A stretch of 64,000 nucleotides of DNA from Lachnospiraceae bacterium. Lineage in GTDB: Bacteria > Bacillota > Clostridia > Lachnospirales > Lachnospiraceae. Position 1 is the first letter of the stretch. Each line of letters starts with the position of its first letter. Below, one piece after another: positions 36,597 through 49,876 of this stretch. The notes beneath the pieces are model-generated. The model saw only the letters and a program-made list of their open reading frames with translations, made no database searches and had not been told where the DNA came from. The position numbers were made by a program, and so were the translations under genes. Where the stretch lies: NCBI GenBank assembly GCA_014804785.1, contig JAAUZD010000016.1:49256-113255 (forward strand), given 5' to 3'.

Positions 36597-36900
36597 AAAA
36601 AAAGTCGCCTCCTTTTCGCACTTTTAAATGAATTAAGTACGACAAGCGGTGACTGTACACTCTCCCGTGCGTGTCCTGCCTCTCCTCAAAGTTAAGCGCA
36701 GATTTCTCTGCACGCTTCAAAGGGGCACGCTTAACGCCCGTGTTTCTGTCTTATTTGACAGACAATATGTTTGTACAGTGACTTGCCGTCAGGTTCTTAG
36801 GTCTGGCAGTTGCCAGCCTCTTGACATTCGCTCCACGGAAAACCTGCAGTGCCTTTCGGCAAAGCAGCAACCTCACGCTTCATCGCTATCATGCCACAGC
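36597..36900 (-). promoter_or_regulatory. About 300-nt GC-rich structured 5' leader of the S10 operon
   Basis: It lies between a consensus promoter and the rpsJ RBS (AAGGAGG). It contains GNRA-capped hairpins, a long-range ACTGTACA/TGTACAGT helix and mutually exclusive GTTAAGCG/CGCTTAAC pairing (see findings). Confidence 0.5.
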
Positions 36901-43142: not shown

Positions 43143-43210
43143 ATGGGAAATTCACATGGATGGAAAATTCACATGAATGGAAAATTCACATGAATGGGAA
43201 ATTCATGTGT
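43143..43210. repeat. Tandem direct repeat, 4 x 17 bp
   Basis: Copies: ATGGGAAATTCACATGG (43143), ATGGAAAATTCACATGA (43160), ATGGAAAATTCACATGA (43177), ATGGGAAATTCATGTGT (43194). It spans the ASKHA gene stop codon. Confidence 0.95.
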
Positions 43211-44616
43211 TTAAAAAATCGTTCCTTAAATGAATCCTCCTTGGCCAGTTCCACATGCACCAAACGGCCACTCTCCTCCTCTGCGTTTTTCAATACTTTC
43301 CTTGAAAGCAATGCCATCGCCGCCCCTGTTCCAGCCAGATTACCCGCCTGCACCATTTTTTCCCTTGGCACATCCGGGAAAAGTCCAATTGCAATACCGC
43401 TTTCAATACTGATATAACATCCAAATGCTCCTGCCAGATAGATTTTGTCAAGCGCGTCCGCCTGTATGCCTGCTTTTTCAAGCAGAATCTCTATACCGGA
43501 TCTGATTGCGCTGACCGATAACTGCAGCGCCCTCACATCATCAGCCTGAAGATAAACCGGGTGTGACTCATCAGTAAGCAGAATTCTTCTTCTATCATCT
43601 ATGGTTTCAATTCTCCTGCATATTCTCTCCGGTACCCCCGCTTCTTTCGCTTCTTTCGCATCCCGCATATACCCGGTTTGATCAAGAACCCCGCTTCGGT
43701 AAAGCAGTGCAAGACCATCCACCAGACCGGAACCGCAGATACCCAGCGGATTTCCGCCGCCAATCACCCTACACACAATATCCTGCATGGGGAATCTTCC
43801 GCCTATGGAAATCATATCGACAGCGCCTTCTGCCGCCCGCATTCCCTGGCTCACAGCACCGCCCTCCAGCGCCGGTCCCGCTGCGGCGGAGCAAGCATAT
43901 CTTTTCTCTCCGCACAAAAGAAGAATTTCCCCGTTGGTTCCAATATCCACCGCCAGCACTTTATCCCCCTGCGTCTTCCAGTTTACATAACAATTCACTG
44001 CCAACGCATCTGCTCCCACATAACCGCCTATAGGAGGCAAAATGATCATATCAGCATCCTTTAAAAATTGAAATCCAAGCTGCTCTCCTTTCCTATAAAA
44101 GCTTTCTTTATAATCAGGCATAAAGGGTGCTTGGAACAATCCCTCTGGTCTAATCCCCATCAAAATTTCACACATGGCAGTATTCCCTACAATGGTAACC
44201 TTCTGCACTTTCTTCCTAGCGATATTCCCTGTGTACTCCTGTTTAGAAAGACGCCCCATCATACCGGCTGCCATCTCATCCAACTTCCTGACCACCAGTT
44301 CTTGCATCTTTTCAAGCTTGTCAGTGCTCTCCATCGCTGCCTGTATCCTGCTGATGACATCTGCCCCAAAAGCTGCTTGCGGATTCGCACCTGTCTCCGC
44401 ATCCAAAAGACTCCCTTCCTTTAAGTCCCACAACATTCCCGCCAAGGTAGTCGTGCCCACATCAAAAGAAATGCCCAGTCCTTTGCCTGGGTCTGCTGAA
44501 AATCCTTCCGGGAACTGCACCCTGATCTGCTTATTTGTATTCAGTTTCTGGAAGATTCCGCATCCGTTGCAATTGATCCGCTTACATCCCGGACACCTAT
44601 TTACTCTGTTTTCCAT
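43186..44616 (-). CDS. ASKHA-fold ATPase of the DUF4445 / RACo (corrinoid-activation) type, lacking the N-terminal 2Fe-2S ferredoxin domain
   Basis: 476 aa. Phosphate-binding motifs ISFDVGTTTLAG and LAVDIGTNGEILL. N-terminal Cys cluster CPGCKRINCNGC. AGGAGA RBS. Confidence 0.7.
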   Translation of the reverse strand: MENRVNRCPGCKRINCNGCGIFQKLNTNKQIRVQFPEGFSADPGKGLGISFDVGTTTLAGMLWDLKEGSLLDAETGANPQAAFGADVISRIQAAMESTDKLEKMQELVVRKLDEMAAGMMGRLSKQEYTGNIARKKVQKVTIVGNTAMCEILMGIRPEGLFQAPFMPDYKESFYRKGEQLGFQFLKDADMIILPPIGGYVGADALAVNCYVNWKTQGDKVLAVDIGTNGEILLLCGEKRYACSAAAGPALEGGAVSQGMRAAEGAVDMISIGGRFPMQDIVCRVIGGGNPLGICGSGLVDGLALLYRSGVLDQTGYMRDAKEAKEAGVPERICRRIETIDDRRRILLTDESHPVYLQADDVRALQLSVSAIRSGIEILLEKAGIQADALDKIYLAGAFGCYISIESGIAIGLFPDVPREKMVQAGNLAGTGAAMALLSRKVLKNAEEESGRLVHVELAKEDSFKERFFKHMNFPFM

Positions 44617-44654
44617 AAAAAGTCTCCTGTTCAGCTTGAGGTTAGCTTAATATC

Positions 44655-44971
44655 GAGGGGCGTGTGGGCGGGGAGGATTGGGGATGAACCGGGCAGCTGT
44701 GGGGATGGGCATTGTATCTGCCGCAGACCTATGTACAGCGGTAAGAGAGGCTAAGTATCCCTGTGGCAGATGTATCATGAAGGACGCAAACGGCGTATTG
44801 GTCCATCCATGGACCAAGTTACGCCTTCGGCGGACGTCCTGTCCGCCGATTGCTGGCATACGAAGGGATACTAAGTCTCTCTAACCGCTTCCCATAAGGT
44901 CTGCGGCAGATACAATGCCCATCCCCACAGCGCCCGGTTCATCCCCAATCCTCCCCACCCACACGCTTCTC
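44655..44971. repeat. 317-nt near-perfect long inverted repeat / hairpin (candidate structured RNA or MITE-like element)
   Basis: 44655-44733 is the reverse complement of 44893-44971. 44738-44762 pairs with 44864-44888. Branched 101-nt apex. GC-rich island in an AT-rich divergent intergenic region. Confidence 0.9.
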
Positions 44972-45184
44972 AGACGTAAAGCTATGCCTAACTTAAATTT
45001 TTCTTGTATTTTTCTTTATACTCTCATTTCGTACTCTTATTCCTTGCTGCTCAGCACTGTCCTTACTAGGAGGCACTTCTGAACTGTTACGCTATTTATA
45101 AAAGAATACCACAAAATTCTTGCTTTTTTAACCAGATTTCTCTATTATCTAAAACAGAAGAACGAATGAGTGAAAGGAAATTTT

Positions 45185-47840: not shown

Positions 47841-48797
47841 TTATTGGCTGGTATCTACTGCTGCCCCTTTCATATCCTCTTCTAACAGCTTCATGTCATC
47901 CATGATTTTCTTTACTTCCCTCTGGATATCCTCTATGGATTTTTCTGCTTCTACGACAAACTCGGTGGAAGCTGCAATCTGTTCCGAAAATTCTTCCCTC
48001 TCTTTTTTATCTTCCTTCTGCTTCTCGATCTTTTCCCGTTCTTCCTTTTCTTTCTCGGCTTTCTCCTCGGCTGCTTCCCTCTTTTCTTCCATTTTCTCAT
48101 CAATATGCTCCTTGGATTCATCCACAAGCATACCTATGATTTCATCCCTAGCTGCCTCCATCACATCATCCGCAGCCTGCTGTGCCTTTATCATTGTCTT
48201 TGATTTTAAAATCGCTCCTTTAATAACAGAAATCGCTCCGTCTTCCTCTTTTATCTTCTTCTGAGCTTCTGCGATTTCCTGCTCATAAGGGGAACCGCTG
48301 TTTAACATGTCCATGGAACGCTCCTGATACTCCGTAAGCCCCTCTTCCCTGATTTGCTGTAGGCGTTCTTTCTCCTGCGCGGTCAACACAATTTGAGCAT
48401 CCGGCTTGTGAGACTTCCTCTCCTTCTCCAACAGTTTTAAATCCTGCTCCTCCTGGGAATCCTCTTCGATGCCGTAGTGCTCTCTGAGTTCCTGCCTTGC
48501 ATTATTGATAAGTTTAAGCTCATCATTTGCTTTTCCAATCGTCTCTTTGTGCTTCTTGATATTATTTCTTCTCTCAGACAGATCATCCTCCAGCTTCTGA
48601 TCGCTCTTACGTGCGTCACCGATGATCTTCATCACCTGTTTTTTGGCTTCCTGCTGTTTCCGGGCAATTGGATCTAAGCTTCCATTTATGTCTCCTGCAA
48701 AAACATTCTGCTGTCCGTTCTTTTCCGGTATAACTCCGTTATGCCTTTCGCTCCGGGTGCTATCACCCATAAAGATTGTTGTATTTTGTACTTTCAT
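47841..48797 (-). CDS. E/K-rich coiled-coil protein, paralog A
   Basis: 318 aa. MKVQNTTIFMGD N-terminus, long charged helical segments, C-terminus KKIMDDMKLLEEDMKGAAVDT. No TM segment or signal peptide. Confidence 0.7.
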   Translation of the reverse strand: MKVQNTTIFMGDSTRSERHNGVIPEKNGQQNVFAGDINGSLDPIARKQQEAKKQVMKIIGDARKSDQKLEDDLSERRNNIKKHKETIGKANDELKLINNARQELREHYGIEEDSQEEQDLKLLEKERKSHKPDAQIVLTAQEKERLQQIREEGLTEYQERSMDMLNSGSPYEQEIAEAQKKIKEEDGAISVIKGAILKSKTMIKAQQAADDVMEAARDEIIGMLVDESKEHIDEKMEEKREAAEEKAEKEKEEREKIEKQKEDKKEREEFSEQIAASTEFVVEAEKSIEDIQREVKKIMDDMKLLEEDMKGAAVDTSQ

Positions 48798-48824: not shown

Positions 48825-49778
48825 CTATTTAACGGTGTCCACTGCTGCCCCCTTCAGGTCTTCTTCCATCAGCTTCATCTCGTCCATGATTTTTCTGATT
48901 TCTTTCAGAGCCTCTCCCATGGTGCCTTCCGCCTCCAAAATAGAACTGGTAGAATCTGCGATTTCCTCTGTAAAGGCTTCTTTTTCTTCCTTTTTTTCTT
49001 TCTGCTTCTCGATCCGCTCCTGCTCTTCCTTTTCCTTCTCGGCTTTCTCTTCGGCTGTTTCCTTCTTTTCTTCCATTTCCTCGTCGATGTGGTCCTTCGC
49101 CTCATCTATCAGCATGCCGATGATTTCATCCTTGAGCGCATCCTTTATTTCATCCGCCGCCTCCTTCGCCTTGATCATGGTCTGGGATTTCAGATTTGCC
49201 TCTTTCATATTGGAAATGGCAGCATTTTCTTCCTGTATCCCCTTCTTTGCATCAGCTATCTTCTCTTCATTAAGGCTGCTTCTCTTTTTCAGTTCAAGGC
49301 ATCTCTCCTGATATTCCGTAAGACCTTTGCCCTCAATCTGTGCAATCTGTTCCTGCTCTTCTAATGTCAGGCGGACTCCCGAGCCCGGTCTTTCGGCATC
49401 TACCTTCTTTTCCAGAAGTCTTAAATCCTGCTCTTCCTCCGAGTCCTCTTCTACCTTGTAGATTTCTTTCAACGCCTGTTTCTCCGCCTTGATCTGCTTC
49501 AGCTCTTCATTTGCCTCTCCAATAGTCTCCTTGTGGATTTTCAGCTTATTTCTGCTTTCAGTCAGACTATCCTCCAGCTTTCGGTCGCTTCCCCACGCGT
49601 CGCCTACAATCTTCATAATCTGCTTTTTGGCCTGCTGCTGCCTCTGGGCTATGAGGTCCGGCTTCTCATTCCTGTTTCCTGCAAAGATACTTGCCTGACC
49701 GTTCTTATCACGTGCTATGCCGTATCCTGCGCTTCCAGTATTGTCTCCCATAAAAATCGTTGTGTTCTGCACTTTCAT
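48825..49778 (-). CDS. E/K-rich coiled-coil protein, paralog B
   Basis: 317 aa from the Met at 49778 (MKVQNTTIFMGDN...). Collinear with paralog A, including the C-terminus RKIMDEMKLMEEDLKGAAVDT. Confidence 0.7.
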   Translation of the reverse strand: MKVQNTTIFMGDNTGSAGYGIARDKNGQASIFAGNRNEKPDLIAQRQQQAKKQIMKIVGDAWGSDRKLEDSLTESRNKLKIHKETIGEANEELKQIKAEKQALKEIYKVEEDSEEEQDLRLLEKKVDAERPGSGVRLTLEEQEQIAQIEGKGLTEYQERCLELKKRSSLNEEKIADAKKGIQEENAAISNMKEANLKSQTMIKAKEAADEIKDALKDEIIGMLIDEAKDHIDEEMEEKKETAEEKAEKEKEEQERIEKQKEKKEEKEAFTEEIADSTSSILEAEGTMGEALKEIRKIMDEMKLMEEDLKGAAVDTVK

Positions 49779-49876
49779 AGATCCTTCTACCTCCATTAAT
49801 CAGGGTAATCCATTACCCCCGGTTTTGCTGTATGTGCTTTCCTGTGCATGATAAATAATCTTATGCCTTATCTTTT

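Follow-up and report, generated by a model that had tools for sequence, protein, structure and literature searches.

The window analysed here, a 64,000-nucleotide stretch of Lachnospiraceae DNA (GenBank contig JAAUZD010000016.1, positions 49,256 to 113,255), contains a long, near-perfect hairpin between two divergent genes, one for a RACo-like ASKHA protein and the other for a methyltransferase. We find that the branched apex of this hairpin matches TwoAYGGAY (Rfam RF01731), a motif that has been an orphan since 2010 and is common in human-gut Lachnospiraceae. The curated 168-nt model of this motif covers only the tip of a rod of 200-400 nt, and the rods appear to behave as a mobile, multi-copy repeat. 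The explanation to which we lean, with modest confidence, is that the window holds, in this hairpin, a complete copy of a palindromic repeat that is non-coding, dispersed in the Lachnospiraceae and tipped by TwoAYGGAY, with a proposed role at the RNA level through the protein CsrA. That the copies make up a mobile or duplicative repeat family we consider likely.

The core of the element (44730..44896, minus strand, 167 nt) aligned with model positions 1-168 of 168 in RF01731. A cmscan search against Rfam 15 gave this full-length match 109.5 bits (gathering score 43, E 4e-20), and it was the one RF01731 match in the 64-kb window. Judged by this score, the core is almost certainly a member of the family. 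The original prediction had matched the hairpin to no known RNA and had listed a novel structured RNA among its candidates; the Rfam scan that it proposed has supplied the identity. Because the match is on the minus strand, this is the sense strand of the hairpin, and not the plus strand, for which a transcript had been weakly favoured on the basis of G-T pairs. Read on the sense strand, the 'C/A mismatch' of the plus strand becomes a G-U pair, and its G-T pairs become A-C mismatches.

Statistics for the family, here and below, come from 53 copies from Lachnospiraceae and other Clostridia, which are among the matches listed from a scan of 185,579 species-representative genomes with an apex-derived pattern (at least 119 loci). 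The pattern fixes the stem of the first apical hairpin, so the set samples one branch of the family and is uninformative on the conservation of that stem; pattern matches in Desulfofustis, Lysobacter, Streptomyces and others fell below the Rfam threshold and were left out. Both apical hairpins of the window copy had been placed correctly. Hairpin 1 (44828..44848, minus strand) reads CGGCGGA-CAGGACG-UCCGCCG in the sense direction, with a GGA in its loop, and hairpin 2 (44792..44825, minus strand) reads GGCGUAAC-UUGGUCC-AUGGAU-GGACCAA-UACGCC, with the canonical AUGGAU loop. The distance from GGA to GGA is ~29 nt in the window copy and 28-31 nt across the family, in which the stem of hairpin 2 covaries and its loop is retained. 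The closing helix P1 is also present, as a 25-bp inner helix running into a 78-bp outer helix. A pseudoknot between the loop sequence CGTCC and a GGACG outside it, which had been suggested, did not survive this comparison: the complement of the loop was found in 15 of the 29 copies with a GGACG loop and in 2 of the 24 with a GGATG loop, and the two did not covary.

TwoAYGGAY was described by Weinberg et al. (2010) in human-gut sequence, Clostridiales and Gammaproteobacteria (PMC2864571). The discoverers considered it probably an RNA, scored it as not cis-regulatory, and described its P1 stem as 'often very large (e.g. 24 base pairs)' (PMC2864571). The taxonomic range of RF01731 (Clostridia, Gammaproteobacteria, human gut) fits the window, in which a protein neighbouring the element is 100% identical to that of an uncultured Lachnospiraceae metagenome-assembled genome (MAG) and an S10-Clostridia ribosomal-protein leader is present. 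Rfam reports covariation-supported pairs in the family (PMC11701678), and a motif scan paired both TwoAYGGAY loops with the CsrA site (PMC4333381). [quoted passage not shown] By sequence, then, the hairpin is a new member of a known family of unknown function and not a new class of RNA.

As first described (44655..44971, minus strand), the hairpin consists of a closing helix of ~103 bp (78-bp outer plus 25-bp inner) round a branched apex of 101 nt. An inverted-repeat search resolved this interval into three collinear blocks, 44655-44694/44932-44971 (40 nt, 93%), 44696-44730/44897-44931 (35 nt, 100%) and 44730-44762/44864-44896 (33 nt, 82%). RNAfold predicted a single rod with the same branched apex and a minimum free energy of -254.9 kcal/mol; 100 dinucleotide shuffles gave -115.5 +/- 6.3 kcal/mol (z = -22.2), and none of them was as good. 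Inverted repeats and fold therefore agree with the long near-perfect hairpin of the original prediction, which had also located correctly the A bulge at 44695, the C/A mismatch and both terminal G-T pairs. The outer limit had been drawn too tightly. Local alignment of the upstream flank with the reverse complement of the downstream flank revealed weaker pairing over ~12 nt more per side, and full arm complementarity extends over 44643..44984 (minus strand, 342 nt), with arms of ~120 nt in which 107 of 119 aligned positions are Watson-Crick. In the sense direction the 5' outer arm (44897..44971, minus strand) is G-rich, with a GC skew of +0.42, and the 3' outer arm (44655..44729, minus strand) is C-rich; both lie outside the Rfam model. 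The hairpin is indeed richer in G+C than its flanks, but modestly (0.51-0.55 versus 0.33-0.46) and not 'much' richer, and we confirmed that it contains no open reading frame (ORF) of its own.

In all 53 listed copies the TwoAYGGAY motif is the tip of a long helix. The arms measure 57-156 nt (median 98), the apex 92-135 nt and the whole 214-404 nt (median 297), and 86% of the aligned arm positions are Watson-Crick. The window copy, which ranks 44 of 53 in arm length, belongs to the upper quartile. The long rod is the rule in the Lachnospiraceae/Clostridia lineage.

This long helix, of ~110 bp in the window copy, is constrained. In an alignment of a four-copy subfamily (A1), 95.2% of the cells were paired and 41 of 141 pairs had changed on both sides, compared with 17.2 +/- 2.8 in column shuffles (0 of 500 reached the observed number) and 3-6 when partners were slid. 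In the outer helix of A1, wholly outside the Rfam model, 21 of 38 pairs were compensatory. Similarly, between the window and one orthologous locus (L008; loci compared in this work carry numbers with the prefix L), the outer helix shows 8 double changes, 3 G-U pairs and 4 broken pairs. Identity between paralogues was 0.88-0.92 in the core and 0.57-0.66 in the outer arms, over a background of 0.43. Since the core is better conserved than the outer arms, the arms drift faster yet stay paired. A strain-level difference is seen at the bulge site at 44695: L002 and L003 have an extra G there, which converts the bulge to a G-U pair (a single-base indel, column 41 of alignment A3). Because the structure recurs, with sequence differences, in the independent assemblies L001-L003, L008, L095 and L132, the long hairpin is real and not an assembly artefact. 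That artefact, a recent accidental palindromic duplication, or a structured-RNA class absent from the catalogues were the readings which the RF01731 match, the compensatory changes in diverged orthologues and the independent assemblies jointly oppose, and we give them practically no credence.

Comparison of filled and empty sites in the window, L008 and L005 showed that the window copy is a 415-nt insertion (45050 to 44636) between two copies of GCTGA. The inserted unit comprises a non-palindromic, A+T-rich 5' leader (44972..45050, minus strand), the hairpin, and a 3' tail (GATATTAAGCTAACCTCAA; 44636..44654, minus strand); its sense strand folds at -262.7 kcal/mol (z -23.5). The last 20 nt of the leader (TTAGGCATAGCTTTACGTCT, 44972-44991) are kept in orthologous copies and partly in the paralogous copy B introduced below. 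The upstream 5-bp direct repeat (45051..45055, minus strand) and the downstream one (44631..44635, minus strand) bound the insertion, and the latter is followed by the ribosome-binding site AGGAGA and the ATG at 44616 of the RACo-like gene (43186..44616, minus strand; 476 aa; Pfam RACo_C_ter 3e-69, Raco_middle 7e-43), which is context and not part of the element. The unit thus lies between a conserved promoter block and the ribosome-binding site of this gene; the element is in sense orientation, stops 38 nt short of the ATG and does not cover the ribosome-binding site. Between the methyltransferase and RACo-like genes, this bidirectional block of ~60 nt (45090-45150; GATAATAGAGAAA..GGTTAAAAAAGCAAGG.TTTTGTG.TA) shows strong conservation. 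It contains an extended -10 promoter element predicted from its consensus for the RACo-like gene (TGGTATTCT; 45103..45111, minus strand), and recurs with TGGTATTCT in L005, L008, L010, L133, L134 and L136, with or without the element, down to 60% identity of the flanking proteins. If the predicted -10 is right, the element lies inside a 5' untranslated region (UTR) of ~480 nt.

Orthologous loci, fetched by means of the RACo-like protein and scanned with Rfam, hold 0-3 copies each, at four different sites round the RACo-like gene cluster. Site A, in the RACo 5' UTR, is filled in the window, in L008 (79% protein identity), in L095 and in L132 (75%; cut by the contig end). Site B, in the 5' UTR of the divergent methyltransferase gene, is filled in L005 (90% identity), L008 and L095; this copy is oriented toward the methyltransferase gene, differs in its arms and lies between AATGAG repeats, and the window offers the clean empty site. 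Site C, between the methyltransferase and TrpRS genes, is filled in L095 and L105, with the flanking repeat TATTCTAT where the window has a single ATTCTAT. Site D, between the convergent amino-acid-kinase and DUF1015 genes, is filled in L132 and is occupied in the window by an ordinary terminator hairpin. At site A the element is missing from the RACo-like orthologues L005, L010 and L133-L137: L005 is traceless, with a single GCTGA (...GTGCTGA directly followed by ACAGGAG...), and L010 has a deletion remnant, a piece of the leader only. The orthologous and paralogous copies score 70-135 bits for RF01731. A metagenome scan for more orthologous loci yielded 6, at 60-75% identity, of which one holds the cut copy A and the copy at the fourth site and the rest are empty.

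These sites bear on two further readings of the element. It could be a dedicated cis-regulatory leader of the RACo-like gene, either riboswitch-like or a protein-binding 5' UTR element, and its sense orientation 38 nt before the ATG, its position downstream of the conserved promoter block and the Rfam label 'Cis-reg' would all suit such a role. However, the closest orthologue, L005, lacks it at site A, as do L010 and L133-L137; the 82 proteins that neighbour family copies fall into 104 Pfam families, in all orientations and with no consistent association with RACo; and the discoverers scored the motif as not cis-regulatory (PMC2864571). We consider this reading very unlikely. An invertible or cruciform DNA switch, which would separate or flip the two divergent promoters, had also been put forward, and the divergent intergenic setting and the oppositely oriented copy of L005 are compatible with it. 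Yet the L005 copy sits at another site, the methyltransferase 5' UTR, with different arms and direct repeats of its own; L008 and L095 hold copies A and B simultaneously; copy A points the same way in each of the six loci where it is present (window, L001-L003, L008, L095); and both promoters are outside the element, on one same side. The surrounding genes, as had been noted, include no recombinase, transposase or reverse transcriptase gene. We regard such a switch as extremely improbable.

Outside this gene cluster, too, the copies look like discrete units. Copies confirmed by Rfam numbered at least nine in MAG CATLGN01, at least five in CAYOED01 and at least four in CANOEC01, as counted in the fetched fragments. 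L040, L062 and L108 share 86-97% identity that starts and stops precisely at the hairpin ends; the sequences on either side are unrelated, and the direct repeats are TCCTA and T(T)ACGA; a 400-nt subfamily (L090, L031, L082, L017) has the same end-to-end homology in unrelated flanks. Copies within one genome form subfamilies, and their places of insertion are between housekeeping genes with no relation to one another. Among the 82 proteins neighbouring family copies there was no enrichment of transposases, integrases or reverse transcriptases, and blastn searches of plasmid and phage collections with four different copies found nothing. Two pattern matches in viral contigs have no arms and look like chance. 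We also discarded the idea that the arms are guides or antisense sequences directed at other loci, since arm sequences match only other element copies.

The flanks and the arrangement of the copies have a polarity. The 40 nt 3' of the hairpin have a C content of 0.33/0.28 and a G content of 0.14/0.15, and the 5' arm is G-rich in 38 of the 53 listed copies. In most copies (e.g. L109, L117, L022, L058) the 3' tail resembles a Rho-utilisation (rut) site, often with 0-5 G versus 15-27 C per 40 nt; the window copy has no C-rich tail because the ribosome-binding site comes directly after it. Pairs of copies no more than ~700 nt apart are always arranged 5'-to-5' (divergent), never in tandem or convergently. 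This was the case at 8 loci (L008 1683-2387, L095 2150-2850, L056 5282-5884, L016 1-801, L109 3545-4237, L118 3410-4027, L049 5950-6614 and L088 4669-5337), 6 of them independent by comparison of their flanks, and the chance of this arrangement is 1 in 4 per locus. The pairs are not inverted duplications, since their members belong to different arm subfamilies.

On another reading the element is a small-RNA gene in its own right, a CsrB-like sponge that has a promoter of its own and ends by Rho-dependent termination, and that lies between these genes by chance. This reading draws on the C-rich, G-poor 3' flank, on membership in the Csr-Rsm clan and on the 20-nt leader conserved in copies A and B. 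We hold it to be improbable, however. Promoter-like motifs show neither a fixed distance to the element nor an excess on the sense side (counts below), 5' flanks are unrelated between subfamilies, the 3' flank in the window is not C-rich and runs into the ribosome-binding site, and no intrinsic terminator was found, as neither strand has a T-run after the hairpin. The marks of a separate gene as known for Csr/Rsm RNAs, a regulated promoter and a terminator that belong to it, were thus not seen.

A partner for the apex is suggested by its loops. A GGA-hairpin target is repressed in B. subtilis by the CsrA proteins of Roseburia, Agathobacter and one uncharacterised Lachnospiraceae (PMC13443453). 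The presence of two GGA hairpin loops ~29 nt apart fits what is expected of Csr/Rsm RNAs, namely at least two GGA sites in loops that a CsrA dimer can bridge. A spacing requirement for the two GGA motifs in such bridging was reportedly established by Mercante et al. in 2009. Moreover, some family copies have ACAGGGAUGU in hairpin 1, which equals the consensus RUACARGGAUGU that Dubey et al. are said to have obtained in 2005 by in vitro selection (SELEX). Binding of CsrA by the two GGA loops is plausible on this evidence, and we put forward CsrA binding as the function of the TwoAYGGAY apex only tentatively, as a possibility rather than an expectation.

The mechanism we propose is the following. 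The element would be transcribed within the 5' UTR of the RACo mRNA, where the rod would clamp a three-way apex that shows two GGA loops in a geometry suiting one CsrA dimer. The apex could then act as a CsrA-binding module, titrating or recruiting the protein, and the rod would make its folding independent of the insertion site. The long near-perfect duplex is also a probable substrate of RNase III, cleavage by which could free the apex from any host transcript. At the DNA level, the unit would spread through a trans-acting mechanism and could be lost again where the hairpin brings the flanking direct repeats together and slippage occurs between them. Slippage of this kind is known for the precise excision of Tn5 and Tn10.

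Several results weigh against this proposal. The hairpin-1 loop of the window copy, CAGGACG (A-GGAC), is one base short of the AYGGAY consensus; the same loop is found in 27 of the 53 listed copies, and the variants checked still pass the Rfam threshold. The literature on TwoAYGGAY yielded no experiment on a transcript, on CsrA binding or on RNase III cleavage, and a 2025 preprint calls the motif 'relatively unexplored'. A tblastn search found neither CsrA nor FliW in the 64-kb window or in the fetched loci, although the lack of a csrA gene in the window says little either way. Promoter-like motifs numbered 13 on the sense side versus 10, which is no excess, and lay at no fixed distance. Orientation relative to genes is mixed: the downstream gene is on the same strand in 24 cases and on the opposite strand in 17, and the upstream gene in 16 versus 21. 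As for mobility, the direct repeats vary in length (5, 6, 8 and possibly 14 bp), and the termini are not the same from one subfamily to another. A limited search for an insertion sequence with such termini, through ~1 Mb of fetched loci and the collections of plasmids and phages, gave none, which is a weak result. At site A, moreover, an old insertion followed by losses is the best reading of the data, and not recent transposition. Finally, mismatches in the outer arms comprise 78 G-U and 107 A-C, that is, no wobble bias towards the sense strand, and this absence is at least as well explained by a DNA-level process as by selection on RNA.

The last point leads to the main rival explanation, according to which the elements are purely selfish, MITE-like palindromic DNA (MITE, miniature inverted-repeat transposable element) that lacks a function as RNA. 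Conservation of the apex would then be due to propagation, for instance if a transposase or host factor binds there on hairpin or single-stranded DNA, and a DNA-level process such as arm-to-arm templated repair or template switching would keep the arms complementary. The original prediction had likewise offered a MITE-like element, and at the level of the family much of that description holds: the elements are short, non-coding and made of inverted repeats, their units end where the hairpin ends, they have direct repeats and both filled and empty sites, they occur in many copies in unrelated contexts, and no transposase is linked to them. The missing outer-arm G-U bias, the mixed gene orientation and the lack of a sense-side promoter signal all suit selfish DNA as well, as does a pair of copies in MAG CAYOED01 (L042 4764-5103 and L105 4812-5171), in which ~255 inner nt are 95-97% identical. 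Over their outermost 25-45 nt, the arms of one copy bear no relation to those of the other, although within either copy they are perfectly self-complementary. Gene conversion among dispersed copies could account for this, as could insertion into a palindrome that was already there or a regeneration of the ends themselves.

The likeness to MITEs fails at the termini. In classical MITEs the termini are conserved and the interior is free to drift; in this family it is the apex that has been kept across genera, the arms covary, and conserved termini shared with an autonomous insertion sequence did not emerge from our limited search. In addition, the stems of the apex hairpins covary around GGA loops that are kept, in line with the covariation-supported pairs of Rfam (PMC11701678), the C-rich 3' flank and the 5'-to-5' pairs follow the orientation of the RNA, and no transposase has turned up that would mobilise the units. 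Wobble pairs in the core also favour the sense strand (48 versus 23), a count in which some conserved pairs enter repeatedly, from many copies. From these wobble counts the apex behaves like RNA, and pairing in the outer arms could equally be a DNA-level matter, of templated arm-to-arm repair or of hairpin DNA. We therefore take purely selfish DNA as a serious contender that nevertheless commands only a minor share of our belief.

A more speculative alternative is that TwoAYGGAY is a distinct kind of mobile element, consisting of protein-less 'rods' that depend on the apex, and not on the termini, for propagation and have their arms rebuilt as perfect palindromes wherever they insert, possibly by fold-back (self-primed) synthesis on an RNA or single-stranded-DNA intermediate. 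The idea is suggested by termini that vary and are always self-complementary, by the arm ends of L042 and L105, by the variable length of the direct repeats, by the non-palindromic leader and tail of some units, and by the absence of a linked transposase. Another origin of the arms, by copying from the target site, was rejected for sites A and B, which hold no arm sequence when empty; site C is ambiguous. We see apex-driven propagation as a long shot. If true, it would make the element a bacterial analogue of a SINE (short interspersed element) or of a viroid-like hitch-hiker.

The family, and the places where it inserts, showed some further features. In Desulfofustis glycolicus DSM 9705 (L035, L052, L089, L101, L122, L126) and related Desulfocapsaceae we found fixed 182-nt repeats, with a CGGACA-GGAYG-UCCG hairpin and a second, YGGAYGG loop, in at least six copies in one isolate genome. 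The only such locus put to Rfam, L035, gave no match at the gathering score; the repeat may be a related, uncatalogued variant. In Solimonas sp. SE-A11 (L027, L028) and Pseudomonadota MAG_258 (L075, L093, L114) there are multi-copy 110-nt units with 30-nt arms, of which L027 and L075 score 50-54 bits for TwoAYGGAY. Repeat-like behaviour is therefore found in Gammaproteobacteria as well, with short arms. In L016 (~843-890) and in the 3' flanks of L117 and of the minus-strand copy of L056, the end of the 3' arm is tandemly repeated just past the hairpin, for example as CCGCCTCCTGAC GGGCGCTTAT, three times. Such ends offer alternative partners to the 5' arm and probably arose by replication slippage at the hairpin.

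Other palindromes occupy the RACo-like 5' UTR in more distant relatives: L134, L135 and L136 have other repeated palindromic units there (GAATTGCGCTGATGCGCAAG, twice or more), and L135 has a larger, palindrome-rich insertion. Hairpin insertions seem to have a hot spot in this 5' UTR. The contigs of L004, L006, L007, L009 and L132 end 60-260 nt upstream of the RACo start codon, and short-read and Logan contigs often stop inside the hairpin or at its edge. The element thus breaks assemblies, and its frequency in metagenomes is therefore probably underestimated. Elsewhere in the window, the S10-Clostridia leader (RF03136, 69 bits; 36810-36891, minus strand) is the only other Rfam match, and two adjoining ORFs, 47841-48797 and 48825-49796 (both minus strand; 318 and 323 aa), have no Pfam match.

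These results matter for an orphan motif in three ways. First, the copy number has to enter any model in which TwoAYGGAY titrates CsrA, and if CsrA does prove to be its partner, the motif would be a candidate RNA partner in gut Firmicutes, where only a protein antagonist, FliW, is known. Second, the hairpin explains breaks in short-read assemblies at element loci. Third, the elements are markers of strain-level variation in the 5' UTRs of housekeeping genes. What is new concerns the family as a whole: its rod and the compensatory changes of the arms, its copy number, and its gain and loss. We found none of this in the papers that mention the motif, nor its repeat-like behaviour, with multiple copies, filled and empty sites and direct repeats.

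Compared with TwoAYGGAY as described, the element has the same two terminal hairpins with GGA loops, closed by P1, in gut Clostridia. It differs in the closing helix, which here and in the 53 listed copies is 57-156 bp, three to six times the length described, and extends beyond the 168-nt model. With the Csr/Rsm sponge RNAs it shares GGA motifs in hairpin loops and the Rfam clan. TwoAYGGAY, however, has two sites per copy, as against 5-22 in the sponges, has no detected promoter or terminator, is set in a long duplex and is dispersed in many copies; furthermore, the known CsrA antagonist of Firmicutes is the protein FliW and not a small RNA.

The Correia elements of Neisseria, the enterobacterial ERIC sequences, the REPINs of Pseudomonas and bcr1 of Bacillus are MITE-like palindromic repeats. 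Like them, TwoAYGGAY elements are short, non-coding and intergenic, occur in multiple copies, fold into long hairpins upon transcription and lack a transposase of their own; they share with them direct repeats, insertion polymorphism between strains and a frequent location in UTRs near gene ends. Those repeats conserve their terminal repeats, the recognition sites of a transposase or RAYT. In TwoAYGGAY, by contrast, the termini differ, the arms covary, the apex is conserved across genera and phyla, and the direct repeats have no fixed length. A last comparison is with the RNase III processing stalks, the long stems that flank 16S and 23S rRNA, which are functionally analogous to the stems of pri-miRNAs. 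At 100 bp the duplex of TwoAYGGAY is far above what RNase III needs, and its outer arms, with no wobble bias, do not indicate a specifically RNA-level constraint; both systems nonetheless surround a conserved, structured RNA with a long, near-perfect duplex of arbitrary sequence, which would allow its excision from whatever precursor contains it.

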